Source: a virus. From it: a DNA stretch of 34,520 nt. Where the stretch lies: IMG/VR virus record IMGVR_UViG_3300036782_000036, positions 1 through 34,520 of that record; one strand, written 5' to 3'. Every line of letters starts with the position of its first letter. Position 1 is the stretch's first letter. This document shows positions 1,302 to 29,900 of the stretch, one piece after another. The notes under the pieces were generated by a model. That model ran no database searches and was not told the DNA's origin. It worked only from the letters and a program-made list of their open reading frames with translations. The position numbers were made by a program, and so were the translations under genes.

Positions 1302-1302
1302 C

Positions 1303-2099: not shown

Positions 2100-2165
2100 C
2101 CCGCCCACCACCGCCCCGGCCCGCAACGGTGCCGGGGCTCGCCCATACACAGAAGGGAGTGCCCG

Positions 2166-2504: not shown

Positions 2505-2505
2505 C

Positions 2506-2937: not shown

Positions 2938-2954
2938 CAGGAGACCGACACACC

Positions 2955-3368
2955 ATGGCATCGCTGAAGGACCAGATCCGCGCCGCGACCGACATCCGCC
3001 ACCAGGACGACGTGGAGATCCCCGAGTGGGTACCCGGCGCCCGCTTCCGGGTGTACGGCCTGCCGTCCGGCGACTGGGAGGCCTACCAGAACTCCCTGAC
3101 CAAGATGACCCGCAAGGACTCCGCCCAGGGCATCGAGATGAGCGTCAAGTCCCGCAAGGCCGAGATCGTCGCCAAGGGCCTGTACGACCAGGAGACCGAC
3201 GAGCGTGTCTTCCCCGACCTGCGCGAGGGCATCGCGATTCTGTCCCAGCGCAGCGCGGGCATCGTCAACGCCCTGTTCGAGCTGATCCGTCATCTGTCCG
3301 ACGATGGCAAGGACTTCGCGCAGCGCGTGCAGGAGGCGGAGGCGGGTTTCGGCGACGGCCCGAGCTGA
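2955..3368 (+). CDS. Tail assembly chaperone (G-like, zero-frame product)
   Basis: ATG at 2955. Lies between the major tail and tape measure genes. Ends 16 nt after an in-phase GGGTTTC slippery heptamer. Confidence 0.8.
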   Translation: MASLKDQIRAATDIRHQDDVEIPEWVPGARFRVYGLPSGDWEAYQNSLTKMTRKDSAQGIEMSVKSRKAEIVAKGLYDQETDERVFPDLREGIAILSQRSAGIVNALFELIRHLSDDGKDFAQRVQEAEAGFGDGPS

Positions 3369-3694
3369 GGCTGCAGTACGACCTCGCCGCGGCCTTCCGC
3401 ATCCCTCCCTCCGAGGTCCTGGACCGCTTCACCGAGGAGGAGTTGATCCGCCTCATCGCGTACCAGAACCTGTACGGCCCGATCGGGCCATCACGCCTGG
3501 ACGTCGTGGCCGCCCGCCTGGGCATGGACGTGGCCGCCCCGCACATGAAGAAGGGCCAGCGGCCGAAGCTGAAGGACCACCTCGTCCAGTGGAGCCGCAA
3601 CGCTCGTCCTCGTAAGTCGGGCCGTGAACTGCTGGCCGCCGTCAAGGACATCCACGCCGGCCTCACCGGCAGGTCAGGAGGGGGGAAGAGATGA
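2955..3694 (+). CDS. Tail assembly chaperone, -1 frameshift fusion product (G-T-like; slip at 3344-3350)
   Basis: The -1 frame stays open from the slip site to 3694 (..GGFRRRPELRLQYDLAAAFRIPPSEVLDRFTEEELIRLIAYQNLYGP..). It ends in an ATGA overlap with the tape measure start. Confidence 0.75.
3344..3350 (+). promoter_or_regulatory. Programmed -1 ribosomal frameshift slippery site G GGT TTC
   Basis: An X XXY YYZ heptamer in the correct phase of the 2955 frame (codons GGT 3345-3347 and TTC 3348-3350). Confidence 0.75.
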
Positions 3695-5670
3695 CCGTCC
3701 TGGACGAGCTGCTTGTCCGCATCGGCATGGACTCCTCAGGCGTCGACGAAGGCACCGAGGAAGTCACCGGCCGCCTCGACGGCCTCGCGGGCCCGGCGGC
3801 CGCCGCCGGCCTCGCCGCCGGGGCGGTGTTCGCTGCGGGGATCTCCTCGGCGATGGACCTCGCCGAGGCGCAGGGTGAGCTCAAGCAGTCGCTCGGCCTC
3901 ACCGAGGTGGAGGCCGAACGGGCGGGCGACATCGCAGGTGACGTGTTCTCCGACGGGTTCGGGGGGTCTCTCGAGGAAGTGACCACCGGCCTGTCGAGCG
4001 TCACGTCCGCGATGGGGAAGCTCGGCGACTTCACCGATGCCGAGCTGCAGGACATGACAGAGAGCGCCCTCGGCCTGGCCAAGAAGCTCGAGGTCGACGT
4101 CGCCGACGCGTCGACGGCGGCCGGCCAGCTCATCAAGCAGGGCCTCGTCAAGGACGGCACCGAGGCGTTCGACGTACTGGCGCGCGCCGCTCAGGTCCTG
4201 CCCAAGAGCATGCTGGCCGACGTGCCTGCGGTCGTGCAGGAGTACGGCACGCACTTCAAGCGCATCGGGCTCGACGCCAGCACAGCGTTCGGCATGATGT
4301 CGCAGTTCGTGAAGGCCGGCGGTAAGGACATCGACCAGGCGGGCGACATTTTGCACGAGTTCGCCCGCATCACGAGCGAGGAGACCGACCGGGCGAAGGA
4401 GGGATTCAAGAGCCTCGGCCTGGACGGCGCGAAGATGCTGGCCGACATCGGCAAGGGCGGCAAGCCCGCGGCCGACGCGCTGCAGCTCACCCTGGACAAG
4501 CTCCGCGGCGTCGAGGACCCGGCCAAGCGGGCCCAGCTCGGCGTGCAGCTGTTCGGCGACATGGCCGGTGAGGCTGCGGACGCGCTGCTCGCGATGAACC
4601 CGCAGACCGCGCTCGCCGCCTCCGGGATGGACACCGCGGCCGGCTCCTCGAAGAAGCTCACCGACGCGATGGAGGCCTCGCCCGCGCAGCAGATGGACGC
4701 CGCGATGCGGACCCTGCAGACCACGCTCGGCGAGGCGTTCCTGCCCATCCTGAAGACGGTGTCCGAGTTCTTCGCCAAGCACAAGGACACGATCAAGGAA
4801 CTCATCCCGATCGTGCTCGTCCTCGTCGGCGTCCTCGGCCTGATGGCGGCCGCCATCTGGATCGTGAACATCGCGATGATGGCCAACCCGATCGGACTGA
4901 TCATCGCCGGGATCATCGCCCTGATCGCGGTCATCGCGCTGATCGTCATCAAGTGGGACGAGATCAAGGCCAAGACCCTGGAGGTCTGGGACAAGATCAT
5001 GGTGGCCCTGGACATCGCCTGGCGCTGGATCGAGACGAAGGCCGGCGAGCTCTGGGACAGCTTCGTCGGCATCTTCGCCGACGGGTGGATCTGGCTGCGC
5101 GACAAGGTCTTTGCGCCGATCGGCCGGTTCTTCACCGACACCATCCCTGGCTGGGTGGACTCAGGCGTCCAGTGGGTCAAGGACATCTGGAACGACATGA
5201 TCGGCTGGTTCCAGAGCATCCCGGACAGGATCGCCCGCGGCCTGAGCGGCATGTGGTCGTGGGTCACCGACGGTCTGAAAGACGCCCTCAACGGCGCCAT
5301 CGGCCTGATCAACTCGGGGATCTGGTTCATCAACGACAAGTTGATCGGCAGCGTCAACCTCTTGCCCGGCATGAGCGTGCCATACATCCCGTACCTCCCT
5401 TATCTGGCCGAGGGCGGCATCACGACCGGGCCGACGCTCGCCATGATCGGCGAGGGCAGCGAGCAGGAGGCCGTGCTCCCGCTGTCCAAGCTCGAGGCAC
5501 TGATCAACACCCCCGCCGCCATGGCCGCCCCGTCCACGGGCAAGGTCCAGCCTGTCCAGGTCCAGGTGATCGCGCAGGCCGACCGCAACGGCTTCCGGGA
5601 CTTCCTCCAGTACGAGGTCCGCACCACCGCCGGCGGATCCGTCGCCCGCTACGCAGGAGAGGACGACTAA
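3691..5670 (+). CDS. Tail tape measure protein (659 aa)
   Basis: Position after the chaperone pair. Ala/Gly/Leu-rich helical N-terminal half. Central hydrophobic block IPIVLVLVGVLGLMAAAIWIVNIAMMANPIGLIIAGIIALIAVIALIVI. Trp-rich C-terminal part. All are typical of TP901-type tape measure proteins. Confidence 0.9.
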   Translation: MTVLDELLVRIGMDSSGVDEGTEEVTGRLDGLAGPAAAAGLAAGAVFAAGISSAMDLAEAQGELKQSLGLTEVEAERAGDIAGDVFSDGFGGSLEEVTTGLSSVTSAMGKLGDFTDAELQDMTESALGLAKKLEVDVADASTAAGQLIKQGLVKDGTEAFDVLARAAQVLPKSMLADVPAVVQEYGTHFKRIGLDASTAFGMMSQFVKAGGKDIDQAGDILHEFARITSEETDRAKEGFKSLGLDGAKMLADIGKGGKPAADALQLTLDKLRGVEDPAKRAQLGVQLFGDMAGEAADALLAMNPQTALAASGMDTAAGSSKKLTDAMEASPAQQMDAAMRTLQTTLGEAFLPILKTVSEFFAKHKDTIKELIPIVLVLVGVLGLMAAAIWIVNIAMMANPIGLIIAGIIALIAVIALIVIKWDEIKAKTLEVWDKIMVALDIAWRWIETKAGELWDSFVGIFADGWIWLRDKVFAPIGRFFTDTIPGWVDSGVQWVKDIWNDMIGWFQSIPDRIARGLSGMWSWVTDGLKDALNGAIGLINSGIWFINDKLIGSVNLLPGMSVPYIPYLPYLAEGGITTGPTLAMIGEGSEQEAVLPLSKLEALINTPAAMAAPSTGKVQPVQVQVIAQADRNGFRDFLQYEVRTTAGGSVARYAGEDD

Positions 5671-5673
5671 CCC

Positions 5674-8391
5674 ATGGTTGCTCTGCCGCCGCCGGACCTG
5701 TTCGAGCTGTACTACAACGGCCAGTTCAACAACCGCACCTCCGACGTGCGGGCCTCGGCCGGGGTCACGATGTCGCGCGGAGTGTCGGCCGAGGGGACGC
5801 GGGCGGATCCCTCGGCCGCCGACATGCTGCTCAACAACCGGCACGGCGACTACTCCCGGCGCAACCCCATGAGCGCGCTGTACGGGAAGATCGGCCCGAA
5901 CACGCCGATGCGCTACTCCGTCGACGCGGGCTACCCCTACCTCCTGCTCCCCGGGGACACCTCCTCCGCGCTCACCACCCCCGACGCCGCGGTCCTCGGC
6001 GTGACCGACCTCGACATCCGCATCGAGGTCGCGCTCGACTCCTACACCACCGCCCAGGAGGCGGTCTCCCGGTTCCTGAACTCGGGCAACAACTGCTCCT
6101 GGTCGCTGCAGGTGGGCAACGGGCTGCAGCTGTCCTGGTACCCGGACGGAAGCTTCGCCAGCCAGAAGACCGCGGGCATCGGGGTGCAGCTGCCCGCCAT
6201 CCCCCGCCAGCGCATCGCCTTCCGTGTCGTCCTGGACGTCAACACCGGTGCCGGCGGCCACCTCGTCTCGTTCTACTGGGCGCCGTCGATCACCGCGACC
6301 ATGTGGAACCCACTCGGCACCGCCACCGCCGGCACCGGCACCACGACGGTGTTCGACGGGGCCGCCGGGCTGCAGCTCGGCACGAACACCGGCCTGGTCG
6401 GCACCGGGCTGAAGGGCCGCATCTACGCCTTCCAGCTGTGGGACGGTGCCACCGGCGTCCGCAAGGTCAACGTCGACTTCTCCACCGCGAAGGCCGGCGA
6501 CACCTCGTTCACCGACACCGGTGGCCTGGTGTGGACGAAGGCCGGCGCCGCCGCCCTGGCCAACCGGCACGTCCGTATGGCGGGCGAGGTCCCGGCCTGG
6601 ACGCCGCAACGCGATGCCTCCGGCGCCGACCGGACCGTGCCGATCACCCCGGCCGGGATAACCCGCCGCCTCGACGCGGGCACCAAGCCCCTCGAGTCCG
6701 CGCTGCTGCGCTACCTCCGCGCCGCGGGCCCGATCGAATGCTGGCCACTGATCGACGGAGCACAAGCCACCTCGGGCGCCCCGCTCGTCGGCACCGCGCC
6801 GGCCGTCGTCCTGCCGGGCAGCACCTACGTGTGGGCGGACGGCGAGCTCGCCGACTGGATCGAGCCGGTCATCCACCTCACAGGCGGCGGCCGGATCATC
6901 GCCCCGCTCCCGGCGCACGCTTCCGCGGCCACCGGCTGGTCGGTGGACTGGCCCTTCTCACAGCTGGACTCCCTCGTCACCTGCAGCGTGACCGAGGGCA
7001 GCGCCACCGGCCGGACATGGACGGTGTCCCTCGACCCCTCCACCAACAAGATCCAGCTCTTCACCTTCACCGCGGCCGGCGCCACCACCCTGCAAGGCGA
7101 GATCTCTCCCGCGAACGTCTTCAACGACGTTCCGCACGTGGTGCGGCTGACGACAGCGTCGAGCGGCGGCTCCGTCGGCTGGAGCCTGTACCTCGACGGC
7201 GTGCTCGCGGTGGCCGGGGCGGACACGCCCGCCGCCGTCCCGCTGCAGAACGTCGATGTCCTGGCCGGCCTGTCCGGATCCTTCAAGTCCATGGCGCTCG
7301 GCTACATCACCTACTGGGGCTCCTCGGCGCCCTCCGCGGCCGACTTCTACCGGGCCCTCACCGGGTTCCAGGGAGAGACCGCCGGCGCCCGCTTCCTGCG
7401 CCTGTGCACGGAGCAGGGGGTACCGGCCGCCCTGATGGGCACGGCCTCCGCCACCACCCCGCTCGGCGTCCAGAAGCGGGAGAAGTTCCTCGACGCGCTC
7501 GCTTCCCTCGCCCGTGCCGACGGCGGGTACGTCCTGGAGCAGCGCGACGACCGTGCCCTCGCCTTCCGGCCCCGCCAGACGCTTTACAACCAGCCCCCGG
7601 CGATCACCCTGGACTTCTCGACCGGGGTGATCAGCGAGCCGTTCCGGCCGCTGGACGACGAGAAGCTCAGCGAGAACGACGTCGCGGTCACCAGGGAGGG
7701 AGGCACGTTCGCGTCCGCCGTCCAGCTGACCGGGCCCCTGTCCGTCCAGGACCCCCCGGCCGGTATCGGCCGCTACGACGTCGCCCACACCCTCTCGCTC
7801 GCCGCCGACGCGCAGGCCCTGCAACAGGCCGCGTGGCGCCTGCACGTGGGCACTGTCGACGGCCTGCGCTATCCGCAGATCACCCTCGACCTCGGCAATC
7901 CCCGTGTGTGGCCGCTGATCCGGGCCGTCTACCTGGCCGACGTCGGCGACAAGATCCGGCTCACCGGCCTGCCGGACGACTACGGCCCCGACGACGTCGA
8001 CCTGATCATCCGCGGCTACAAGGAGACCGTCACCGAGAAGACGTGGCGGATCACGTTCACCTGCACCCCGGGCGCCCCCTACGACGTCCTGCAGCTGGGA
8101 GCCCCCGCCTACTCCCGGCTGGCCACTGCAGGTTCCCAGCTGGCCTCCGCCATCACCGCCACCGCAACGTCCCTGTCCGTCACCACCACGGGGACCACCC
8201 TGTGGACCACAGCGGCCGGCGACCGCCCGTTCGACATCGTCGTCGGCGGCGAGCGGATGACCGTCACCAACCTGACCGGCGCCACCTCGCCGCAGACGTT
8301 CACCGTCACCCGCTCCGTCAACGGCGTCGTCAAGTCCCACGTGGCCGGGACCGCGCTCCAGATCGCCCGGCCCGTCGTCTACGCCCTGTGA
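5674..8391 (+). CDS. Minor tail (tail-tip) protein, 905 aa, with two predicted ConA/LamG-like jelly-roll modules
   Basis: Immediately downstream of the tape measure gene. Segments ending in GRIYAFQLWDG (about nt 5970-6490) and GWSLYLDGVL...ALGYITYWG (about nt 6920-7325) look like LamG_3-type modules. High GC3 throughout. Confidence 0.75.
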   Translation: MVALPPPDLFELYYNGQFNNRTSDVRASAGVTMSRGVSAEGTRADPSAADMLLNNRHGDYSRRNPMSALYGKIGPNTPMRYSVDAGYPYLLLPGDTSSALTTPDAAVLGVTDLDIRIEVALDSYTTAQEAVSRFLNSGNNCSWSLQVGNGLQLSWYPDGSFASQKTAGIGVQLPAIPRQRIAFRVVLDVNTGAGGHLVSFYWAPSITATMWNPLGTATAGTGTTTVFDGAAGLQLGTNTGLVGTGLKGRIYAFQLWDGATGVRKVNVDFSTAKAGDTSFTDTGGLVWTKAGAAALANRHVRMAGEVPAWTPQRDASGADRTVPITPAGITRRLDAGTKPLESALLRYLRAAGPIECWPLIDGAQATSGAPLVGTAPAVVLPGSTYVWADGELADWIEPVIHLTGGGRIIAPLPAHASAATGWSVDWPFSQLDSLVTCSVTEGSATGRTWTVSLDPSTNKIQLFTFTAAGATTLQGEISPANVFNDVPHVVRLTTASSGGSVGWSLYLDGVLAVAGADTPAAVPLQNVDVLAGLSGSFKSMALGYITYWGSSAPSAADFYRALTGFQGETAGARFLRLCTEQGVPAALMGTASATTPLGVQKREKFLDALASLARADGGYVLEQRDDRALAFRPRQTLYNQPPAITLDFSTGVISEPFRPLDDEKLSENDVAVTREGGTFASAVQLTGPLSVQDPPAGIGRYDVAHTLSLAADAQALQQAAWRLHVGTVDGLRYPQITLDLGNPRVWPLIRAVYLADVGDKIRLTGLPDDYGPDDVDLIIRGYKETVTEKTWRITFTCTPGAPYDVLQLGAPAYSRLATAGSQLASAITATATSLSVTTTGTTLWTTAAGDRPFDIVVGGERMTVTNLTGATSPQTFTVTRSVNGVVKSHVAGTALQIARPVVYAL

Positions 8392-8400
8392 GGAGGCACC

Positions 8401-8886
8401 ATGCCCGACCCGATCGTCCTGTCCGGACAGATCATCACGCCCGACATCATCAACGGGCTGGTCCAGCCGCACGTGCAGGTCGTCGCCGGAGCCTTCGCGG
8501 TCCCGGCCGGCGCCAGCACATACACGCCCGTCGCGTGGGCCAGCACCCTGTCCGGCAACCACGCGCCCATGTGGTCGCTCGCGCAACCCACCCGGCTGAT
8601 CGCCCCGTCCGCCGGCGTCTACCTGATCCATGGCGGCGTCACCTGGCCCGGTGCCCTCGGCACCTCCGACGCCCGCGGTGAGATCCGCGCCAACGGCAGC
8701 GCCTCGCCCTCCCTCGGCACGAGGGTCGGCAGCCAGCGCGGCAGCGCCGGCAACATGCAGGCCGCGGCCAGCGGCACCGTCACCCTCACTGCCGGCGGCT
8801 ACGTCGAGCTCTACCTCAACACCCAGGCCGCGACCGCCATCACGGCCACCGTCACCCTCGGCATCACCCGCATCTCCGCCACCTGA
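8401..8886 (+). CDS. Minor tail protein, possible receptor-binding protein (161 aa, predicted beta-sandwich)
   Basis: ATG 3 nt after GAGGAGG. The pattern GVYLIHGGVTW.....DARGEIRANG......GTVTLTAGGYVELYLN resembles C1q/TNF-like tail fibre tips. The function is inferred from position. Confidence 0.55.
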   Translation: MPDPIVLSGQIITPDIINGLVQPHVQVVAGAFAVPAGASTYTPVAWASTLSGNHAPMWSLAQPTRLIAPSAGVYLIHGGVTWPGALGTSDARGEIRANGSASPSLGTRVGSQRGSAGNMQAAASGTVTLTAGGYVELYLNTQAATAITATVTLGITRISAT

Positions 8887-8901
8887 TCAGGAGGTTTCCG
8901 C

Positions 8902-9162
8902 ATGCCCGCCTACCCCAACTTCGACCCCGCCGGCGTCGCCTACGACCTCCACCTGTGGCACCCCGAGTGGGGATCGGTGCACGTCTCGGTCGGCACCCCC
9001 AGCTACCCCACGGGTGTCTTCAACAACGCCGGCGTGGACGCGATCATCCAGCAGCTCGCACAGGACCTCCTCGCGCCGATCGGCGGCGAGAAGGTCATCG
9101 AGGTCGTCCGTCTCCAGACCGAGTCCGTGAAGTGGACGCCCCCCGCGCCGCCCACCCCCTGA
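8902..9162 (+). CDS. Hypothetical protein (86 aa) between the tail and lysis modules
   Basis: ATG preceded by CAGGAGG (8888-8894). Very high GC3. No recognisable family. Confidence 0.65.
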   Translation: MPAYPNFDPAGVAYDLHLWHPEWGSVHVSVGTPSYPTGVFNNAGVDAIIQQLAQDLLAPIGGEKVIEVVRLQTESVKWTPPAPPTP

Positions 9163-9229
9163 CCTTGCCCGTACCCGCCCGCCCCGCGCCGTCCGGCCCG
9201 GGGCTTTGCCATATCTCAGGAGGCCCCCC

Positions 9230-10150
9230 ATGGCCGCACCACTGTCCGCGGACCGGCTGATCGCCGCGCTCCGCGCCGAAGGCGTCACCGTCATCGAGCA
9301 CCCCGGCTGGCGCACCCACAACCGCAACCACGTCGGCGACTGGGGACCGGTCGTCGGCGTGATGATCCACCACACCGTCAGCTCCGGCACCACCTCCTCG
9401 GTGGGGATGTGCTTCAACGGGTACGAGGGCCTGCCCGGGCCGCTGTGCCATGGCGTCATCGCGAAGGACGGCGTCGTGCACCTCGTCGGCAACGGCCGGG
9501 CCAACCACGCCGGCGGCGGCGACCCGTCCGTCCTCCAGGCCGTCATCACCGAGACGTACGGCGAGCAGCCCCCGGCGCCCCGCGTCCACCAGGGCAGCCC
9601 GGGCGCCGTCGACGGCAACTCCCGCTTCTACGGCTTCGAGTGCGTCAACCTCGGCGACGGCACCGACCCCTGGCCCACCGAGCAGCTGCTCGCGATCGAG
9701 CGCGTGGCCGCGGCCCTGTGCCGCGCGCACGGCTGGGGCGCCCGCTCCGTCATCGGCCACAAGGAGTGGTCCGACTGGAAGAACGACCCCCGCGGCTTCA
9801 CCATGCCGACGATGCGCGGCCGCGTGCAGGCCCGCCTCGACAAGGACCCTGCCAAGCCCGCCGAGCCGACGCCCACCCCGCCGAAGCAGCCGCCGGCCCT
9901 GGAGCCGTTCCCCGGCGCCTCGTTCTTCCGCGCGGGACGGAGCTCACCGGTCATCACCGCCATGGGCCGGCGCCTCGTCGCCGAAGGCTGCTCGGCGTAC
10001 ACCTCGGGGCCCGGGCCTCGGTGGACCGAGGCCGACCGCCTCAGCTACGCGAAGTGGCAGCGCAAGCTCGGATTCCGCGGCTCCGACGCCGACGGCATCC
10101 CCGGCCCCTCCTCCTGGACCGCCCTCAAGGTCCCCCGCTCCTCCCACTGA
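9230..10150 (+). CDS. Endolysin: N-acetylmuramoyl-L-alanine amidase (Amidase_2/PGRP) with a C-terminal peptidoglycan-binding domain
   Basis: ATG 6 nt after GGAGG; the ORF-track TTG start at 9206 is less likely. Catalytic-type motifs VMIHHTVS, NHAGGG and IGHKEWSDWKNDP. C-terminal PG_binding_1-like segment WQRKLGFRGSDADGIPGPSSWTAL. Confidence 0.9.
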   Translation: MAAPLSADRLIAALRAEGVTVIEHPGWRTHNRNHVGDWGPVVGVMIHHTVSSGTTSSVGMCFNGYEGLPGPLCHGVIAKDGVVHLVGNGRANHAGGGDPSVLQAVITETYGEQPPAPRVHQGSPGAVDGNSRFYGFECVNLGDGTDPWPTEQLLAIERVAAALCRAHGWGARSVIGHKEWSDWKNDPRGFTMPTMRGRVQARLDKDPAKPAEPTPTPPKQPPALEPFPGASFFRAGRSSPVITAMGRRLVAEGCSAYTSGPGPRWTEADRLSYAKWQRKLGFRGSDADGIPGPSSWTALKVPRSSH

Positions 10151-10879: not shown

Positions 10880-10961
10880 CATTCGTCTGTTCTGGGGCAC
10901 ACGACAAGGGCCTTGCCCCCTACTCTGATCGGTGTCGAGTCGTTCAGAGAGGGGCAAGGCC

Positions 10962-12215
10962 GTGTCGCTTCATGCTACCCCGGACCCGTACGCCAACCCG
11001 GCGGCTTTCGGGCAGAGAATGCAGATCCTCCGTGAGCGCCGCGGCATGACCCGCCAGGTGCTCGCCGGGCTCCTTGGGAAGTCGACCGACTGGGTGAAGT
11101 CCGTCGAGTCCGGCCGCATGCAGGCGCCCGGGATCGAGATGGTCTACCGGATCGCCGAGGCTCTGCGCGTGCGCGAGCTCTCCGACCTTACTGGCCACGG
11201 CGAGTACAAGGTGGACTTGTTCCTTGGCCCCGGGCATCCACGCCTGGCCGCTGTCAGGGCCGCCATCGAGGCGCGCCCTCTCGGCACGCCGGGAAGCGCA
11301 CCACCGAGGGCGGAGCACCTGGCCGCCAGGCTCGCTGTTGCCTGGAAGGCTCGGCACGAGGCCGCCAACCACCGAGAGAAGATCGGTGCGTTGTTGCCAG
11401 ACCTGATCCGAGACGCCCAGCTCTCCGTCAAGCACGCCGGGGAGCCCTCGGAGTGGCGCGCGGCGCAGGCCGTCCTCGCCGAGGTCTACTCGCTCGCGCA
11501 GTTCTTCCTCGCGTACCAGCCCGACCCGTCGCTCCTCTGGCGTGTTGCGGAGCGCGGCATGGTGGCCGCTGAGCAGTCCGACGACCCGCACGCGATCGGT
11601 GTCTCGTCCTGGCTCCTCGCCCAGGCCCACCGCGACACCGGCCCCTCCCACTACGACCAGGCCGACAGCATCACCAACCAGGCACTGGAGTACCTGACCC
11701 CGCTCCTGCCCGACGCCACGGACGACATCCTCGCCATCGCGGGTGCCCTGACCTTCGAGGCCGGCTACACCGCCGCCCGTAGGGGATCAACGGCCGCCGC
11801 CTGGCACCGGTGGGACACCGCCCGCGAGATGGCCGAGCGCCTGCCAGCCTCCTACTACCACCCCATCACGTCGTTCTCCCAGGCCATCATGGGCGCGCAC
11901 GCGGTCACAGTCGCCGTCGAGCTACACCACGGACCGGAATCGGTACGGCAGGCCGCCCAGGCGGATGTGGCGACCATCCCCTCCAGGCCCCGACGGGCCC
12001 GCCATCGGATCGAGGAGGCCCGCGGCTACCAGCTCGACGGTCAGCCCGACGTCGCCATCGCCACCCTGGAGAAAGCCCACCACGCGGCCCCGGAGACGAT
12101 CCGCTACAACGGCTACGCGCGGTCGATCATCTTGGAACAGACGGAGTCCAAGGTTGCGCACCGCCGCCGCCGGGCCGCCGAACTCGCCGTAGAGATGGGG
12201 CTCCTGGCAGCCTGA
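10962..12215 (+). CDS. XRE-family HTH regulator with a long all-helical (TPR-like) C-terminal domain (418 aa; 427 aa if GTG 10932 is used)
   Basis: The N-terminus FGQRMQILRERRGMTRQVLAGLLGKSTDWVKSVESGRMQAPGIEMVYRIAEAL is a classic HTH_3/31 motif. The remaining ~330 aa are Ala/Leu-rich helical repeats. GTG 10962 follows GAGAGGGG. Hairpin terminators flank the gene on both sides. Confidence 0.8.
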   Translation: MSLHATPDPYANPAAFGQRMQILRERRGMTRQVLAGLLGKSTDWVKSVESGRMQAPGIEMVYRIAEALRVRELSDLTGHGEYKVDLFLGPGHPRLAAVRAAIEARPLGTPGSAPPRAEHLAARLAVAWKARHEAANHREKIGALLPDLIRDAQLSVKHAGEPSEWRAAQAVLAEVYSLAQFFLAYQPDPSLLWRVAERGMVAAEQSDDPHAIGVSSWLLAQAHRDTGPSHYDQADSITNQALEYLTPLLPDATDDILAIAGALTFEAGYTAARRGSTAAAWHRWDTAREMAERLPASYYHPITSFSQAIMGAHAVTVAVELHHGPESVRQAAQADVATIPSRPRRARHRIEEARGYQLDGQPDVAIATLEKAHHAAPETIRYNGYARSIILEQTESKVAHRRRRAAELAVEMGLLAA

Positions 12216-12913: not shown

Positions 12914-13321
12914 ATGCGCCCCCAGCGATTCACCGACTACGTCCTCGACCTCGCCAAGAACGCGCCCGGCATCGTCCGGGTGCAGACCCTCGCCGAGGCC
13001 GGCGACACCAAGCGGCCGTTCGGCCTGGCCATCACGACGTCGAGCGGCGAGAACCGGTGGCAGTTCATGGGGCAGCTCCCGGACGGAGCGAAGCACGAAG
13101 GCTTCACCGACGAGCCGGTGACCGGCACCCCTGCGCCGGCCATGGGCGACCCGGCTACCGCCGGCTCCCCCGAGGCGTGGCTCGCGGCCGTCCTCGCCGG
13201 CGCCGAGTGCCCGGAGATCTCCGCCATTGGCCGGTGGTCCACCAGCTCCGAGGGGGCCGCGCAGCGTGGCATCACTGTCGACTTCCACGACGGCTCGCGG
13301 ATCTTCGCGCGCCAGCTCTAG
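12914..13321 (+). CDS. Hypothetical protein (135 aa)
   Basis: ATG preceded by GAGAGGAAA (12897-12905). Good GC3. No recognised family. Confidence 0.65.
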   Translation: MRPQRFTDYVLDLAKNAPGIVRVQTLAEAGDTKRPFGLAITTSSGENRWQFMGQLPDGAKHEGFTDEPVTGTPAPAMGDPATAGSPEAWLAAVLAGAECPEISAIGRWSTSSEGAAQRGITVDFHDGSRIFARQL

Positions 13322-13395
13322 ACCCTCCCCGGTCACGGCCGGGGAGTGCACATCGCACCACCGTCAGCACCACCTACACACAGGAGGAACTGATC

Positions 13396-13542
13396 ATGCG
13401 ATTCGACCCCGGCATGTGCGAGGGGAACTGCCCGGTCTGCGGCGCCGGCGTGGGCAGCTCGCCCGGCACCCCGACGACGATGCACCAGCGCGCCGGGACC
13501 GGCACGGAGACCTGCCCGGGGAGCGGCCAGCCCGCCCTGTAA
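13396..13542 (+). CDS. 48-aa Cys-rich (zinc-ribbon-like) micro-protein
   Basis: ATG 8 nt after CAGGAGGAA (13381-13389). Sequence MRFDPGMCEGNCPVCGAGVGSSPGTPTTMHQRAGTGTETCPGSGQPAL. A strong hairpin follows. The ORF-track entry 12859..13542 is a spurious upstream extension. Confidence 0.55.
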   Translation: MRFDPGMCEGNCPVCGAGVGSSPGTPTTMHQRAGTGTETCPGSGQPAL

Positions 13543-13552
13543 CCGCGTAACG

Positions 13553-13583
13553 AGCCCCGGCCGGACCATCCACGGCCGGGGCT
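13553..13583. terminator. Bidirectional terminator hairpin between convergent genes
   Basis: 11-bp perfect stem AGCCCCGGCCG/CGGCCGGGGCT with a 9-nt loop. It lies between the + strand stop at 13542 and the - strand stop at 13582. Confidence 0.7.
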
Positions 13584-13824
13584 ACTCGAACAGCTGGCCT
13601 GGCGGGATGCCTATCGCGTCCGCCAGGAGCAGGACTGTGTCGACCGTGGGCGCGGCTCGTCCCGCCTCGATTTCTTGGACTGTCGCGCGCCCGAGCCCGC
13701 TCCGCTCGCAAACGGCCTGCTGGGTCAAGTTGGCGTAGAGCCTTGCGTCCCGCACCCGTGCGCCGAATACGGCCCGGCGGGCGAGGACCCAGTCGGGCGG
13801 CGGGGCTGATTTCGGGCGGACCAC
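13582..13824 (-). CDS. Small XRE/Cro-CI-type HTH regulator (80 aa)
   Basis: RVRDARLYANLTQQAVCERSGLGRATVQEIEAGRAAPTVDTVLLLADAIGIPPGQLF is a canonical HTH_3 domain. The GTG start lacks a clear RBS, so the true start may be internal or the mRNA may be leaderless. Confidence 0.75.
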   Translation of the reverse strand: MVRPKSAPPPDWVLARRAVFGARVRDARLYANLTQQAVCERSGLGRATVQEIEAGRAAPTVDTVLLLADAIGIPPGQLFE

Positions 13825-13932
13825 AGGGCAACGTTCGTCGCTTCTTGATCATTTGTATGCACGGCTAGCCAGGCATTTTTTGATCTTGAACGGCGCGCGT
13901 CACCCTGGGCCGCCCGATCCGGGCGGCTCCGG

Positions 13933-14910
13933 CTAGGGCACGTCCCGGTCCCTGCTCGTCGCCCACCACACCATCAACTGATTCGTGGAACGCAAGCCGA
14001 GATCATCCCGGAGCGCCTCAAGGTCGCGTCCCACCTCCCGGCCGCTCACGCCGAGTTGGCCGGCGACGACCGCCTGAGTATCTCCCTTGGCGAGCCCCCG
14101 CAGGATCATCCGCTGTTGCGGCGTCGTGACCGCGTCCGCCAGGGCGGCCCGAGCCTCCTGCCACGGGGTGGCCCTGTCCCAGTACCCCTGAAATACAGCG
14201 AGAGCGAATGCAGTGCAGGCGATGTCTTTGATGTGCCAGCCCGCATGGGCCTCGCTGCTCAGCACATGGTTGTCCACGAAGAGATTCGTCCCCGCCATGA
14301 CCATGCGGGGCGGAAGCTCTTGACCGACACGGACCTCGCCGCCCTCCGCGAGCACGACCTCCACGTACCTCGCCGTCGGCGCGTGCGCGAGGGCGGCAGA
14401 GGGGTACAGGGACCGTACGGGGATGCCTCGCACCAGGAGAGCGCGAGCTCTGCGGAGGCCCTCCTCCAGGACGGCCGGGTCTCGCTCAGTCGGCACGCCA
14501 GGCTGGACGGTGTAGAGGCCGCCCTCCGCGTCTGTCGCAAGCACGTGCTTGATGTGTTCGTTCATCAGCGCCTTGCTGTGCACGAACTCGCTTGCGGGGC
14601 CGCCATAGAGACGTGCGGGGTCATAGTGCCGCGCCAGACGTTCGAGGGCCGACACCCGCCCCATCTGATCAAGAGTGCGGGCCAGGGCCGCATGATGCTC
14701 CGCGAGGAGCTGTTGCGCGACGACGCGGGGATCCAGGGCGACAAGCTCGTCGCCGATTTGGCGGACGAGGCCGAGCTGAACGAGCCGGGTCACGGAGGCA
14801 GACGCCTCGACCGGTCGACCCTCCGCGATGTCGCGGTAGACGCGCTCCTCGTCGGGAGTGAGGGCAAGATCTTCAACGATTTCCATACCGCGCCGCCTGT
14901 TCTTGTCCAC
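13933..14910 (-). CDS. Transcriptional regulator: N-terminal winged-helix (TrmB-like), central unknown domain, C-terminal LuxR/GerE HTH (325 aa)
   Basis: The C-terminus TTPQQRMILRGLAKGDTQAVVAGQLGVSGREVGRDLEALRDDLGLRSTNQLMVWW is a LuxR-type HTH. The N-terminus LTPDEERVYRDIAEGRPVEASASVTRLVQLGLVRQ looks like a wHTH. An ATG at 14886 is an alternative start. Confidence 0.8.
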   Translation of the reverse strand: MDKNRRRGMEIVEDLALTPDEERVYRDIAEGRPVEASASVTRLVQLGLVRQIGDELVALDPRVVAQQLLAEHHAALARTLDQMGRVSALERLARHYDPARLYGGPASEFVHSKALMNEHIKHVLATDAEGGLYTVQPGVPTERDPAVLEEGLRRARALLVRGIPVRSLYPSAALAHAPTARYVEVVLAEGGEVRVGQELPPRMVMAGTNLFVDNHVLSSEAHAGWHIKDIACTAFALAVFQGYWDRATPWQEARAALADAVTTPQQRMILRGLAKGDTQAVVAGQLGVSGREVGRDLEALRDDLGLRSTNQLMVWWATSRDRDVP

Positions 14911-15037
14911 TTTCAGACGTGTCCCAAATTTCTCAGGAAAGCCCCTGGCATACGCCTAATGCACATGTCAGCGTAGGGGTCACGTCAAGAGTACGGATGC
15001 ATGTTCTATTTGTGATCGACACTCGGAGGGATGACCT

Positions 15038-15208
15038 ATGGGACAGAGCGTGACCAGAACCGTGGCGGCCGTGCTGGTTTCGGTTGCCGCCGTGATCGGT
15101 ATCGGGGCCACCGCCCACGCGGAGGACCCCGGATGGGGCGGGCCGGCGCCGACCGTCTCCACCCCCACGCCGACGCCCACCGCCGCGAACGATCCCGGCT
15201 GGGGGTAA
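15038..15208 (+). CDS. Secreted small peptide precursor (56 aa): Sec signal peptide plus a 28-aa mature part with two DPGWG motifs (not in the ORF track)
   Basis: ATG 7 nt after GGAGGG (15025-15030). Hand translation: MGQSVTRTVAAVLVSVAAVIGIGATAHA|EDPGWGGPAPTVSTPTPTPTAANDPGWG, then TAA 15206-15208. About 49 of 56 codons end in G/C by my count. The overlapping 192-aa ORF 15031..15609 is Arg-rich nonsense in this stretch. Confidence 0.6.
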   Translation: MGQSVTRTVAAVLVSVAAVIGIGATAHAEDPGWGGPAPTVSTPTPTPTAANDPGWG

Positions 15209-15345
15209 GGCTCCGGCACGTCTTGGTCACTCGTCCGTCAACCCCACATGGCGGATGCGCTCTGATATCGGCCCACGCGCACCATGAGAACGCGCAACGG
15301 GGGAACCCCTTGATCCGGCCCCGACGGCCGGGATGGGTGGGAGAA

Positions 15346-15609
15346 ATGACGGACGTAGTCCGTGTAGTAGTGCTTGGAGTACTGGCCCTCGGTGTCGTCG
15401 CCATGGCCTTCACGTTCAGGTCTCTGCGGAGCCAGGTCGACGACTTGCGCGCTGAGGTCGCATGCCTCCGAATCGAACGACTCCTCGGAGAGCCCGTGGC
15501 CGCGCCGGCGGACCGTGCACGGCCGCGGCGTCCCGAGCTCGGCATCATCGTTGGCGCCTTCGTCGGCGCCATTACTGCCACGGCCGCCACGTGGCTTCTG
15601 TGGGGGTGA
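15346..15609 (+). CDS. Small membrane protein (87 aa) with TM helices at both termini and a central amphipathic/coiled segment
   Basis: ATG after GGGTGGGAGAA. Segments VVRVVVLGVLALGVVAMAF and LGIIVGAFVGAITATAATWLLW flank SLRSQVDDLRAEVACLRIERLL. It contains many A/T-ending codons (gta, gga, cga, gaa, att, act), which is atypical for this genome. Confidence 0.65.
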   Translation: MTDVVRVVVLGVLALGVVAMAFTFRSLRSQVDDLRAEVACLRIERLLGEPVAAPADRARPRRPELGIIVGAFVGAITATAATWLLWG

Positions 15610-15621
15610 AGCATCACCCCC

Positions 15622-15671
15622 GATGCCCCGGCAGTCACGGCCGTGCCCCACGGCCCGGCTGCCGGGGCATC
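15622..15671. terminator. Compound bidirectional terminator between the membrane-protein gene and the integrase gene
   Basis: 13-bp perfect outer stem GATGCCCCGGCAG/CTGCCGGGGCATC encloses a 7-bp inner hairpin GGCCGTG-CCC-CACGGCC. It lies between the convergent stops at 15609 and 15687. Confidence 0.75.
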
Positions 15672-15686
15672 GGCGCATCACGCCCC

Positions 15687-16976
15687 CTAGGCCGAGGCAA
15701 CAGCCCGGAGGGAGGGGCGGCCGCCCTGGAGCGTCGTCTCGATCGTTTCCATGGCATCGTCGTCCGCTTCCGGCAGGAGGTGCCCGTACAGATCCGACGT
15801 GGTCTTGATCGACTCGTGCCCGAGGCGCCGCTGTACGTAGGTGAGCGAGTGGCCGGCCGAGATGAGCGCGGCCGCGTGCGAGTGCCGTAGGTCGTGCGGG
15901 GTCGGGCGCTTGTAGACCGGGAGCATCCCGTCCTTCTTCGCCTTGCGGATCGCACGCTGCCACCGGTCATAGAAGGTGCTGTAGTGGAGCCGCTGCCCCT
16001 GGTCTCCCGTGAAGAACAGGCCGTCGTCGTCGAGGCCCTCGACCCTGCGTAGTTCGTCCAGCGCCTCGATCACGGACGTACTGACCCGGATGGTGCGCCG
16101 CCCCCGCTTGGACTTGGGCATGCCGACGTAGTAGCCGCCCTCGCCGTCCTTCTTCCATGCCCGATGGACCTGGAGCCGTATGCGAGCGGGGTCGGAGTCG
16201 AGGAGGCAGTACGGCGCAAGCGCCGTGAGCTCGCTGTACCGCAGCCCTGTCCCGTACTTGACCTCCACCATCAGCTGGTCCTGGCGGATGGTGAGCCGGT
16301 CCCGGATGGCCGCCACTTCTTGCGGGGTGAGGAACTCGATGTCCTCGTCCTCGGGAGTAGCGCCGCCGTCGTCGCGGCGGGGCAGGTTGGTCCGCTCGCA
16401 TGGGTTGCGAGCACGGAGCGGCGGCTCGGCCTGGACAGCCTCGTTGAGGATCGAGCTAAGGAGGCCGTGGAGGTTCCTGATGGTCTTGGGGGACATTGGC
16501 CTGTTGCGGGGGCCACGCCCCTTCCGCACCTTGGTCTGCTCCAAGACACGGACCCATGCACGGATGGTGTCACTCGAAAAGTGTTTGACGCTGCGGACGT
16601 CGCATTCGCCGAAGGTCGGGAAGATGTACATCTCCAACTCGCGGTGGCACGCCTTGCGGTAGTGCTCCTCGATGCCGGTTCGCAGGTCGATGGTCCGGGT
16701 GGCGTAGGCGCGGAATCGGTACCGCGCATCGTCGATGGCGTCGGCCTCCTCGGGGACGATGTACCCCTTCCCCTTGATCCATCCCGCAGGCCACCGCTGG
16801 CCAGCCTCGTCGACGGCCTGCTTGAAGATGTCAGCCGCGGCTTTGCCTTCGTCGTCGCCGTCGAACTTCTCCGTCGCCCACTGGGGGTCACCAGGTCGGC
16901 GGTTTGCGTCTCGCCACTTCACCTGGTAACTGGTGATCTCTCCATCGCGGCTCTTCCGCGGGTGCACGCTCGCCAT
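15687..16976 (-). CDS. int: Tyrosine-type integrase (site-specific recombinase, 429 aa)
   Basis: Catalytic-domain motifs TGLRYSEL, HDLRHSHAAALISAG and LGHESIKTTSDLYGHL (R...HxxR...Y). An N-terminal SAM-like/arm-binding region is present. It lies adjacent to the tRNA-like attP core. Confidence 0.92.
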   Translation of the reverse strand: MASVHPRKSRDGEITSYQVKWRDANRRPGDPQWATEKFDGDDEGKAAADIFKQAVDEAGQRWPAGWIKGKGYIVPEEADAIDDARYRFRAYATRTIDLRTGIEEHYRKACHRELEMYIFPTFGECDVRSVKHFSSDTIRAWVRVLEQTKVRKGRGPRNRPMSPKTIRNLHGLLSSILNEAVQAEPPLRARNPCERTNLPRRDDGGATPEDEDIEFLTPQEVAAIRDRLTIRQDQLMVEVKYGTGLRYSELTALAPYCLLDSDPARIRLQVHRAWKKDGEGGYYVGMPKSKRGRRTIRVSTSVIEALDELRRVEGLDDDGLFFTGDQGQRLHYSTFYDRWQRAIRKAKKDGMLPVYKRPTPHDLRHSHAAALISAGHSLTYVQRRLGHESIKTTSDLYGHLLPEADDDAMETIETTLQGGRPSLRAVASA

Positions 16977-17074
16977 GGCGTGACACTAGACCCTGTGTTC
17001 CCGTCGCGTTCCCACGGGGCAGTGAATTTGAGGCGAGGCACCCCCATCCTTGCAGGTGGAGGGCCTGTCGCCGC

Positions 17075-17099
17075 TGGTGCCCGGAACCGGACTCGAACC
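17075..17099 (-). other. tRNA 3'-end mimic (T-loop, acceptor 3' strand, discriminator, CCA); putative crossover core
   Basis: The minus strand reads GGTTCGAGTCCGGTTCCGGGCACCA. No complete cloverleaf can be folded upstream, so this is a fragment and not a tRNA gene. Confidence 0.7.
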
Positions 17100-17151
17100 T
17101 GTTCCGACTAGGCGCCTGACCTGCGATAACGCTGTGAGCTCTACGTTTCTT

Positions 17152-17180
17152 ACCGCCGGGACCCGTTTGGGCCCGGCGGT
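17152..17180. terminator. Hairpin downstream of the repressor-like gene, inside the attP arm
   Basis: 9-bp stem ACCGCCGGG/CCCGGCGGT with an 11-nt loop. TCCCGTTTC follows on the + strand. Confidence 0.4.
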
Positions 17181-17297
17181 TCCCGTTTCAGGCCGCCTCT
17201 GTGTTCCCGTGGGAACACAGGCGGGAACACCGCAGGTCGAGCAGGGGTGAAGCGCGCCGAGCGATGACATGGCGGGAACTCGTCGCCGAGGCCTCAA

Positions 17298-17708
17298 TCA
17301 GGCCGTGCGTCGTGCCTCGGGCGGGATGCGGTCGCCGAGTCGGCGGAGAACTTCCGCCTGCACTCGCACGGGGAGGCTGTCCAGGATTGTGAGGATCGCC
17401 GCGGCCTGCGGATCGATCGGCTCATCCTGCGGGGGCGCCGCCGGGATTGGCGCGGCCGTTTCCACGGTCGGCTCACCGCCGGCCATCACGTCATCCGCAC
17501 TGCGCACGGTCCAGCCGAGGGCCCGTTCCAGCTTCCGATACGTAACGGGGCTGACGCGCACCCCCTTGCGGATCTTGGCGAGGGTCTCGATGGAAAAGTC
17601 TGCGCGCTCGGCGACCTCGGTGAACTGCATCCCTTGTGCGGCGATGTAGTTCTCCACGGTGTCGCCGAGTCTGGCGAGCTCCTCGGCTCCGTACCCAGCC
17701 TCCGTCAT
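17298..17708 (-). CDS. CI-like repressor candidate (HTH, 136 aa), probably on a leaderless mRNA
   Basis: HTH segment MQFTEVAERADFSIETLAKIRKGVRVSPVTYRKLERAL. It is divergent from a Cro-like gene across an operator-rich region. There is no SD. A TAGCTT -10-like hexamer ends 6 nt before the ATG. Confidence 0.75.
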   Translation of the reverse strand: MTEAGYGAEELARLGDTVENYIAAQGMQFTEVAERADFSIETLAKIRKGVRVSPVTYRKLERALGWTVRSADDVMAGGEPTVETAAPIPAAPPQDEPIDPQAAAILTILDSLPVRVQAEVLRRLGDRIPPEARRTA

Positions 17709-17902
17709 GCGGCCAAGCTACAGCTTGGCTCCAACTTGCTCCAATGCCCTCCCAGCCACATGACCGTTTTTCACTGCACCATCACGTTTCGATGATCAGA
17801 TTCCGCAACGTGGTGCCACGTTGGAACGCCCACCCTCCAACCTTGGACAAGATCGCTCCAATTTCCGCTTGACCAACTCCAACGTTGGAGTATGTTGGAG
17901 TC
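17709..17902. promoter_or_regulatory. Lysis/lysogeny switch region: back-to-back promoters and repeated CTCCAA/TTGGAG operator half-sites
   Basis: CTCCAA at 17729, 17739, 17835, 17856 and 17877. TTGGA(G/A/C) at 17821, 17843, 17885 and 17895. A 16-bp perfect palindrome ACTCCAACGTTGGAGT lies at 17876-17891. An inverted repeat CAACGTGG-TG-CCACGTTG lies at 17806-17823. GC content is visibly reduced. Confidence 0.75.
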
Positions 17903-18121
17903 ATGTTGAACCGCACGGTTGACGGCCGAAAGGTCCGCGACCTGCGGCGACGACGCGGCCTGTCGGTCGTCGCCGTCGCTGAGGCCGCAGGCTGCTCGAA
18001 GTGGATGATCTACAAGATCGAAACGGGGGCGAACCAGCCCTCGCCCCGCGTCTACGCCGGAATGCGAGACGTCCTTAAGGCGACTGAGTCCCAGCTCCTG
18101 CGCGGCAGGAGGGCTCGGTAA
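17903..18121 (+). CDS. Cro-like HTH regulator (72 aa)
   Basis: HTH segment VRDLRRRRGLSVVAVAEAAGCSKWMIYKIETGANQPS. TTGACC (17869-17874), a 16-nt spacer and TATGTT (17891-17896) sit just upstream, placing the transcription start at about the ATG. The ORF-track TTG start at 17885 is less likely. Confidence 0.75.
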   Translation: MLNRTVDGRKVRDLRRRRGLSVVAVAEAAGCSKWMIYKIETGANQPSPRVYAGMRDVLKATESQLLRGRRAR

Positions 18122-18363
18122 TGCCGCTCTCCCCTAACTACACCGTCGCCGAGGCCGCAGAGCTCCTTCGCTGCAAGGAGCGGTACCTCGAAGACAACCT
18201 GTCCCGGCTGCCTCACCAGAAGATCGGCATCGCCGTCGCCTTCGACGACGAAGACCTCGCCGCGATCAAGGACATGCACCGGGTCCGCCCGCAGCGTGCG
18301 ACCGCTGATGTCGCGCCCCGAACCCTCGCGCAGATCCGCCCCAAGGGCGCGCGCGCTTCCTGA
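18121..18363 (+). CDS. Excisionase/MerR-like HTH DNA-binding protein (80 aa)
   Basis: YTVAEAAELLRCKERYLEDNLSRLPHQKIGIAVAFDDEDLAAI resembles the HTH_17/excisionase family. Its start overlaps the upstream stop by 1 nt (TAATG). Confidence 0.6.
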   Translation: MPLSPNYTVAEAAELLRCKERYLEDNLSRLPHQKIGIAVAFDDEDLAAIKDMHRVRPQRATADVAPRTLAQIRPKGARAS

Positions 18364-27866: not shown

Positions 27867-27884
27867 CCGATGCGAGGGGGTGCC

Positions 27885-29693: not shown

Positions 29694-29712
29694 CCGAAGG
29701 AAGGAGGCAGCC

Positions 29713-29898: not shown

Positions 29899-29900
29899 CC

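Follow-up and report, generated by a model that had tools for sequence, protein, structure and literature searches.

A secreted peptide with repeated D-x-G-W-G units and its divergent regulator form a candidate signalling cassette of Streptomyces phages

Does a temperate phage of Streptomyces carry a peptide signal of its own? The question is raised by a gene of 56 codons in the IMG/VR virus record IMGVR_UViG_3300036782_000036, which was analysed over its whole length of 34,520 nt (hereafter the window) and is the 34.5-kb genome of a temperate Streptomyces siphophage-like virus with a guanine-plus-cytosine (GC) content of 71%. The gene diverges from that of a transcription regulator, and the preliminary description of this DNA had put it forward as a candidate signalling pro-peptide gene because its product appeared to be secreted and to carry two DPGWG motifs. 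To our knowledge, peptide communication between phages, as in the arbitrium and Rap-Phr systems, is known so far only from Bacillota and always with tetratricopeptide repeat (TPR) receptors. The comparison of the locus with its relatives yields a credible and previously undescribed candidate for an actinophage peptide signal, built of parts unrelated to those of RRNPP systems, and it is from such comparison that we infer signalling.

The open reading frame (ORF) encodes MGQSVTRTVAAVLVSVAAVIGIGATAHA and, behind the predicted cleavage site, EDPGWGGPAPTVSTPTPTPTAANDPGWG, exactly the product translated earlier. The GGAGGG in front of its ATG was likewise found in place, and the hand count of about 49 G/C-ending codons proved correct (49 of 56), with a GC fraction of 0.86 at third codon positions versus 0.67 at first and 0.68 at second positions. 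The twin DPGWG units also lie as described, one beside the cleavage site and one at the C-terminus with the stop codon adjoining (Table 1). Among 50,697 INPHARED records, the only related phage is Streptomyces phage Chymera (host S. venezuelae ATCC 10712), which is 79% identical over window positions 13317-17774. At the syntenic place, Chymera has an annotated hypothetical protein of 59 aa, gp30 (AMS01589.1), with the sequence MRMGQRVIKIVTAVLFSAAAVVGVTATAQA followed by DPGWGRSAPEVTTTVTPTPSEPTNDPGWG; together with several Streptomyces entries of the same label, it contradicts the view that the gene had gone unlisted, since orthologues are already in the databases as hypothetical proteins. In the alignment of the window with Chymera DNA, all indels are in frame, and both DPGWG units differ synonymously. 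The 16 DPGWG copies in the eight genes of this class that were read as DNA occur in 11 nucleotide versions, which differ at third positions only; copies within one gene are 1-4 synonymous nt apart, which excludes recent gene conversion between them. In all 14 genes read as DNA, a stop codon (TAA, TAG or TGA) stands directly behind the last motif, and in most orthologues read as DNA a purine-rich, GGAGG-like site precedes the start at a similar distance. The ORF is thus a real, conserved gene which, judging from the confinement of variation to third positions, the in-frame indels and the stop fixed behind the motif, is under purifying selection at the protein level.

That the ORF might be a chance product or a decaying remnant rather than a functional gene is suggested by its very small size and by the finding that a repeated 5-mer of non-low complexity arises by chance in 7 of 240 segments that run from stop to stop in the GC-rich window and measure 40-100 aa. 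Among these seven segments, the peptide ORF alone has a copy of its 5-mer at the C-terminus. The comparative data refute such an origin, because the motif varies synonymously only, indels are in frame and the position of the stop is fixed; moreover, the gene is kept beside regulators that have diverged to 31% identity. We therefore give this explanation practically no credence. The 192-aa ORF in another frame (15031-15609), which had been dismissed as spurious, is indeed an out-of-frame artefact in its 5' part, but a real, conserved gene occupies its 3' part, the last 87 codons (15346-15609).

The anatomy of a secreted product, which had been read from the sequence by eye, was confirmed by heuristic scoring: the window peptide has a basic n-region, an h-region with a mean Kyte-Doolittle value of 2.98 over 12 residues and an AHA motif. 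It contains no cysteine, and so no lipobox, and no pair of arginines. A net positive n-region, a hydrophobic core and a small-x-small site were found in all 31 family members scored, and in 30 of them the n-region is free of acidic residues. The products of the family are accordingly predicted to have the anatomy of Sec type I signal peptides, and the window peptide to be neither a lipoprotein nor a Tat substrate.

Relatives were sought by four routes, namely through the neighbouring regulator, by peptide alignment, with a hidden Markov model (HMM) and with a two-motif DNA pattern in IMG/VR. With tblastn, the 56-aa sequence had no match in INPHARED, presumably an effect of the low-complexity filter, and Chymera gp30 was recognised by its synteny. 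A protein search with the window peptide as single query gave one match, and the alignment and HMM searches reached further. Against 1.84 billion representative proteins, the HMM had 25 matches at E<1e-3, of which 24 are 50-79 aa long and share the same architecture; the remaining one, P0036, is a 469-aa repeat protein matched only at profile positions 18-37. The DNA pattern, which required a C-terminal copy, gave mostly false matches and at least four true members after filtering. In total, about 35 distinct relatives of 50-80 aa are known, and every one that has a source name comes from Streptomyces (phage or prophage). With Chymera gp30 and these relatives, all of the same anatomy, the gene is conserved as the signalling proposal demanded. 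The window peptide has no family in Pfam, PHROGs, NCBIfam or PADLOC. We also noted a 105-aa PASTA-domain protein (P0032, known as protein only; E 1.6) in which NDPGWG directly follows the signal peptide, probably a chance resemblance.

The relatives carry two or three copies of D-x-G-W-G, with a linker rich in Pro, Thr, Ser and Ala between them that measures 6-31 residues and shows no sequence conservation. In 30 of 31 tabulated members, the peptide ends exactly with its last copy; only P0047 (protein only) differs, its three DPGWT copies being followed by an SVGA tail (…DPGWTSVGA). In many relatives with P or S at position x, the first copy starts 0-1 residue past the predicted cleavage site. 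Across lineages, position x is P, L, I, V, M, S or T and the fifth residue G, D or T. The resulting classes are DPGWG (the window, Chymera and others), DPGWD (in two or three copies), DPGWT (P0047 only), DLGWG, DIGWG, DVGWG, DTGWG, DSGWG (three copies) and, on protein evidence only, DMGWG. Within any one peptide, the intact copies share both x and the fifth residue, though their codons differ. In the peptide of locus L015 (P0028), the first copy has decayed to DDIGS and only the C-terminal DDIGWG is intact. As read from these sequences, the unit has changed at least seven or eight times, and each change was fixed in parallel across all copies. Because intact copies within a peptide are identical despite their different codons, and because changes were fixed in all copies in parallel, comparison identifies the pentapeptide, above all its C-terminal copy, as the functional unit under selection. 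This also answers the worry that the motifs might vary freely among homologues: no part of the peptide is more constrained, and they change only in concert.

In all intact copies, the tryptophan is invariant and flanked by glycine. This would suit a precursor of the ribosomally synthesised and post-translationally modified peptide (RiPP) type or of the ComX type, in which the D-x-G-W-G units would be cores modified at tryptophan by an enzyme of host or phage, and RiPP precursors with several cores are known. No modifying enzyme, however, is conserved beside the gene in those contexts of which the neighbours were read; its conserved neighbours are only the regulator, an XRE-family protein, the integrase and an 87-aa protein with hydrophobic ends. 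Furthermore, a cleavable Sec signal, unlike a leader, would be expected to export the peptide before cytoplasmic enzymes could act on it. We regard a modified peptide of this kind as highly improbable. For the unmodified window peptide, the calculated monoisotopic masses are 530.21 Da (DPGWG), 644.26 Da (NDPGWG), 659.26 Da (EDPGWG) and 2732.24 Da (the 28-mer); the mature peptide of Chymera is a different one.

Co-occurrence with the neighbouring regulator, described earlier as a protein of 325 aa, was complete, as the peptide gene adjoins a regulator homologue and diverges from it in 19 of 19 genomic contexts. Upstream of each of the 12 distinct regulator homologues with at least 38% identity lies a divergent peptide gene, and the seven loci that were found from the peptide side (L017 and L018; L019, with 42% regulator identity; L022, L026, L118 and L122, with 31-39%) all carry a regulator homologue in the same arrangement. 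A distant homologue in a non-phage context (P0021, 31%) stands without a peptide gene. An XRE protein of about 80 aa follows the regulator in 11 of 15 other distinct loci and usually completes the cassette as its third member; L026 has it beyond the peptide gene, none was detected in L003 or L007, and the short L019 and L122 allow no decision. On the evidence of these loci, the cassette is small and mobile and comprises a secreted peptide, a divergent TrmB-like/LuxR-type regulator and usually the XRE protein.

Clades in the neighbour-joining tree built from the regulators mostly agree with peptide class. The I, L and DPGWD classes form one clade each, with DPGWD nested within DPGWG, and the three regulators of the V class fall on two basal branches. 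As far as sequence comparison can tell, the linkage of peptide and regulator is inseparable and the class of the peptide congruent with the clade of the regulator. The two regulators of the DPGWD class alone carry F101R and D205K (317-aa numbering) in a phospholipase D (PLD)-like domain, at positions where the others have F, L or Y and D, E or N, respectively. These exchanges may compensate the charge of the additional acidic residue of DPGWD, with the limit that they belong to one clade and hence to a single evolutionary event.

The AlphaFold2 (AF2) model of the regulator (predicted local distance difference test score, pLDDT, 85) indicates a winged helix-turn-helix (HTH) domain, a coiled coil, a PLD-like domain of the TrmB type and, in the C-terminal approximately 60 residues, a LuxR/GerE-type HTH; no TPR is present in the model. 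With Foldseek, the model matched the PDB entries 5bpd (TrmBL2, E 1e-9), 1byr (the PLD-fold nuclease Nuc, E 3e-5) and 2f5t (the effector domain of TrmB, E 2e-4), and its C-terminus gave weak fold matches to TraR, SdiA, FixJ and RcsB. Profile searches of Pfam, PHROG, NCBIfam and PADLOC gave only weak, below-cut-off matches to GerE/LuxR-type HTH domains, among them GerE (PF00196) with 15.9 bits versus a cut-off of 23.5; several homologues have a precomputed match to PF00196. Pfam TrmB (PF01978) was not matched at E<=0.1, and a fold search of BFVD returned no viral protein with the full architecture. The regulator thus shares with TrmB and TrmBL2, at the level of fold, the N-terminal winged HTH, the long coiled-coil helix and the PLD-like domain. 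It differs from them in that the predicted LuxR/GerE-type HTH takes the place of TrmB's sugar-binding subdomain at the C-terminus, giving two DNA-binding domains, in the lack of a Pfam TrmB match, and in being bacterial, phage-borne and paired with a peptide gene. The kinship with AimP/AimR or other RRNPP systems evoked in the preliminary description does not hold for this protein, whose predicted order of winged HTH, PLD-like and GerE domains is not that of an HTH-TPR receptor. As the fold carries the effector site in TrmB, the modelled PLD-like domain is a plausible sensor.

We tentatively interpret the peptide gene as encoding the pro-peptide of a phage signalling cassette with lineage-private pherotypes, a reading suggested by the sequence comparisons that we consider quite possible. 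According to this scenario, (i) the product would be exported, relieved of its signal peptide and trimmed by extracellular proteases from a peptide of about 28 residues to 5-6-mers containing DPGWG, for which, given the location of the copies at the two ends, a single cut per copy would suffice; (ii) the peptide would accumulate with the density of infected cells or lysogens; (iii) it would re-enter cells through an oligopeptide permease of the BldK/Opp type; (iv) it would bind the PLD-like domain of the cassette regulator; and (v) binding would change transcription, both that which starts in the shared control region and that of the XRE gene downstream. The outcome would be a lineage-private signal, with at least eight pherotypes, that biases decisions on lysogeny, induction or superinfection.

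Several points weigh against this interpretation. No processing sites are conserved around the motifs, whose flanking residues vary. Peptides of the L, I, M and V classes would need extra cuts, as 8-14 residues separate their first copy from the predicted signal-peptidase site. We know of no peptide ligand of a PLD-like/TrmB domain. Simple co-inheritance of neighbouring genes would lead equally to the congruence of peptide class with regulator clade, and the divergent adjacency may simply reflect a regulator that controls the peptide gene. Finally, the canonical immunity switch of repressor, cro-like gene and xis lies across the integrase and, in the lysogen, falls at the opposite end of the prophage.

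This position follows from the integration site. The attP core GGTTCGAGTCCGGTTCCGGGCACCA matches the 3' end of tRNA-Leu(UAA) at every position, the homology of the window to the integrated prophages L002 and L013 ends at window position 17102, and a tRNA-Leu(UAA) gene lies at the junctions of related prophages (L002, 3742-3826; L013, 1793-1877; L014, 1927-2010). In Streptomyces, we take this tRNA to be the developmental bldA tRNA, so that the phage lineage would integrate into bldA. TTA codons were found in none of the 28 window genes checked. Given the position of attP, the order in the lysogen is attL, integrase, 87-aa gene, peptide gene and regulator. The peptide stop and the integrase stop (15687) are 479 bp apart, close to the 480 bp estimated before, and the comparison of prophages bore out the placement of the cassette in an integrase-proximal module of temperate phages. 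In L003, L016 and L007, which have other integration systems, the cassette is again the outermost phage DNA. In L007 (4253-4851), from S. griseoviridis, a DIGWG peptide gene and its regulator adjoin tRNA-Ile(GAU) downstream of gyrB-gyrA; no integrase lies between the cassette and this tRNA, and the cassette is the outermost DNA of a prophage or remnant. Integration-dependent immunity was considered and rejected, as attP lies about 200 bp beyond the stop of the repressor gene and not inside it.

The ends of prophages are the usual region of lysogenic-conversion and defence genes, and arbitrium cassettes are found there too. The location near such an end and away from the repressor/cro switch, typical of lysogenic-conversion and defence genes, is therefore in keeping also with a regulated secreted effector (a 'moron'). 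Its intact product of about 28 residues would work extracellularly as a bi- or trivalent ligand of the short-linear-motif type. The tryptophans of its identical D-x-G-W-G ends would occupy matching pockets on an oligomeric target, which might be a protein of the host envelope, a developmental sensor or, for superinfection exclusion, a phage receptor; the regulator and the XRE protein would only control expression of the peptide. Two or three motif copies, with one at either end of a flexible Pro/Thr linker, fit such a ligand, as does the lack of conserved cleavage sites, and divergent pairs of regulator and target are common. Copies that bind identical sites of a single target would likewise be expected to change in concert. 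Yet a linker of 6-31 residues is a poor fit to a fixed geometric spacing, and the peptide of L015 (P0028) retains only its C-terminal copy intact. The linkage to the regulator down to 31% identity, together with the congruent classes, exceeds what control of expression would need, and no PADLOC or defence family was matched beyond generic HTH domains. We consider an effector of this kind possible, if somewhat doubtful.

If the peptide is a signal, its receptor need not be the adjacent protein, for a second regulator, 2.8 kb from the peptide gene, has an architecture of the RRNPP type with no pro-peptide gene adjoining it. This protein, given as 418 aa in the preliminary description, measures 427 aa from its GTG start, matches Pfam HTH_31 and phrog_5823 and has TPR-like helical repeats behind an XRE HTH; its profile matched TPR proteins in the PDB at 1e-6 to 1e-4 (kinesin light chain 1e-6, LapB 4e-5). 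A true RRNPP or arbitrium-type system, in which this regulator would be the receptor and imported DPGWG its ligand, would draw on that architecture and on the presence of a homologue in seven of the longer loci. The gene does not adjoin the peptide gene, however, and is exchanged mosaically between related phages, at 23-89% identity and independently of the peptide cassette. Thus, Chymera (DPGWG) and L003 (three copies of DPGWD) share 84% identity in this protein across different motif classes, whereas Chymera and L002, with nearly identical peptides and the same motif, share 33%. In L006 and L013, shorter and different XRE proteins occur instead (273-289 aa, HTH_31, with DUF5753 in L006). The 427-aa protein has no sequence match to AimR, Rap, NprR or PlcR in Pfam or PHROG, and its single-sequence AF2 model (pLDDT 52) is too poor to confirm TPR geometry. 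The earlier suggestion of a second candidate receptor thus stands as far as the HTH and TPR-like parts are concerned; since its identity is incongruent with the peptide class and since it is absent from several loci, sequence comparison disfavours it as the cognate receptor, and we find an RRNPP-type system very unlikely.

With the adjacent regulator as the putative receptor, the cassette invites comparison with known systems, of which arbitrium and the phage Rap-Phr systems are the nearest in presumed function. Like arbitrium (AimP/AimR/AimX, in SPbeta-like and other Bacillus phages), it belongs to temperate phages, lies near the integrase and combines a dedicated transcription factor with a pro-peptide in the range of 40-70 aa that has an N-terminal Sec signal, a conserved short unit at the extreme C-terminus and discrete variants between phage lineages. 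In contrast to arbitrium, the partner consists of winged HTH, PLD-like and GerE domains where AimR is an HTH-TPR protein, the two genes are divergent where that of AimR directly precedes its peptide gene in the same orientation, the unit occurs in two or three copies, and the host is a high-GC actinomycete; there is no kinship of sequence or fold. The phage Rap-Phr systems of phi3T and phi105 have pro-peptides with tandemly duplicated pheromones, and thus likewise a phage-borne secreted pro-peptide with several putative pheromone copies, whose release would need extracellular proteolysis (PMC11343458). In distinction from the protein paired with the peptide here, to which they are unrelated, Rap proteins are TPR receptors of the RRNPP(A) group from Bacillota, and the copies of the present family are always identical within a peptide and placed at both ends of a Pro/Thr linker.

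The pheromone ComX of Bacillus subtilis, with its essential tryptophan, derives from the C-terminus of a precursor of about 55 aa (for example ADPITRQWGD) and shows pherotype polymorphism; it has no signal peptide, needs the prenyltransferase ComQ and is sensed by the membrane kinase ComP. Our family resembles it in the short C-terminal tryptophan unit and the putative pherotypes, and differs in that no ComQ-like gene is linked. The import step that the signalling model needs could be supplied by BldK of Streptomyces, an Opp-type permease that imports an extracellular signalling oligopeptide in a host developmental pathway, the peptide not being genetically defined; we know of no link between BldK and phages or D-x-G-W-G. 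A search of full-text literature gave nothing relevant on the motifs, on peptide communication of actinophages, on Chymera or on TrmB/LuxR proteins in Streptomyces prophages, which agrees with the earlier statement that no actinophage equivalent is established, as no published one was found there. In the introduction to RRNPP_detector, actinobacterial signals are described as typically small molecules and peptide signals as of the Bacillota type (PMC10075063). The wider proposition, that the cassette is the first peptide-based phage communication outside Bacillota, with a new kind of receptor, a TrmB-like PLD-fold domain fused to a LuxR HTH, that would sense the pentapeptides inside the cell and set lysogeny or induction in convergence on arbitrium, we hold to be rather unlikely.

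Table 1. Positions of the cassette and of other features in the window
Feature	Position	Strand	Basis or remark
Putative virion (tail) genes	1-10150		size and position only
427-aa XRE-HTH and TPR-like regulator	10932-12215	+	Pfam, PHROG, profile versus PDB
Small ORFs	between the 427-aa regulator and the 80-aa XRE gene		
80-aa XRE-family HTH protein, downstream of the cassette regulator	13582-13824	-	Pfam HTH_31/HTH_3
Cassette regulator	13933-14886 (ATG, 317 aa) or 13933-14910 (GTG, 325 aa)	-	AF2, Foldseek, Pfam
Divergent control region, low GC	14887-15037		alignment of 9 loci
Ribosome-binding site GGAGGG	15025-15030	+	read directly; 7 nt before ATG
Peptide gene (candidate pro-peptide), 56 codons	15038-15208	+	translation, third-position GC, Chymera synteny, family
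Predicted Sec (type I) signal peptide, 28 residues, A-H-A end	15038-15121	+	heuristic scoring
DPGWG copy 1, residues 30-34	15125-15139	+	1 residue past predicted signal-peptidase site
Pro/Thr-rich linker, 17 residues	15140-15190	+	alignments
DPGWG copy 2, residues 52-56, exact C-terminus	15191-15205	+	stop 15206-15208
Conserved hairpin	15229-15260	+	base-pair comparison across loci
Second hairpin	15313-15334		before the ribosome-binding site of the 87-aa gene
87-aa gene, hydrophobic N- and C-terminal segments, Chymera gp31 orthologue	15346-15609	+	
Perfect 15-bp inverted repeat	15620-15634 / 15659-15673		between the 87-aa gene and the integrase stop
Tyrosine integrase	15687-16976	-	Pfam PF00589 5e-23; phrog_1
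attP core	17075-17099	-	identity to 3' end of tRNA-Leu(UAA)
Repressor (17298-17708), cro-like gene, xis	17298-18363		followed by early genes
Two large ORFs, provisional terminase and portal	27870-31913		size and position only

The spacer between regulator and peptide gene had been given as 127 bp and of low GC. The length applies if the regulator starts at GTG 14910; from ATG 14886, which is the start in the public gene call P0004 and fits the homologues, the spacer measures 151 bp. Its low GC was upheld for either start (0.50-0.53 versus 0.71 in the window), with 0.53 for the 151-bp region. In the alignment of nine loci, this region contains the invariant blocks CTGGCATACGCC, CACATGTCAGCGTAGGG, CACGTCAAG and GTTCGATTTGTGA, whose conservation suggests that they are probably operators and promoters. 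Inside the blocks we noticed the near-palindromes GGCATACGCC, ACATGT and TCGAT-N5-ATCGA, which are candidate operators for the regulator with its two HTH domains or for the XRE protein. Simple scans of 14800-15750 revealed neither a consensus sigma-70 promoter nor an intrinsic terminator, and Rfam had no match in the whole window.

About 20 nt past the peptide stop lies a conserved hairpin with an invariant loop CCCCACA, of whose 12 pairs three show compensatory changes across six loci; its role could lie in termination, in processing or in the binding of a protein. Directly before the 87-aa gene's ribosome-binding site stands another hairpin (ATCCGGCC...GGCCGGGAT), its stem invariant and its loop variable, which may act in attenuation or translational control. 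The 87-aa protein ends in ...LLWG and has no family in Pfam, PHROG, NCBIfam or PADLOC. As its gene was detected only where a tyrosine integrase adjoins a cassette with a DPGWG-class peptide, and weakly also in L026, it is accessory and not a core part of the cassette. It converges with the integrase gene, from which it is separated by a 15-bp inverted repeat that has no T-tract and is a probable bidirectional terminator.

In summary, our analysis delineates a cassette of Streptomyces phages and prophages in which the gene of a secreted peptide with repeated, concertedly changing tryptophan motifs is linked to that of a divergent regulator. The cassette is present in the cultured phage Chymera on the tractable S. 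venezuelae ATCC 10712 and is thus directly testable, with candidate ligands that are inexpensive 5-6-mers. Should the signalling interpretation be true, peptide signalling would have arisen in phages more than once, a new fold would join the receptors of peptides, and Streptomyces biology would gain a genetically defined extracellular peptide. Even if the product is an effector, a repeated tryptophan motif that changes in concert within a phage-secreted peptide constitutes a new and well-defined family.

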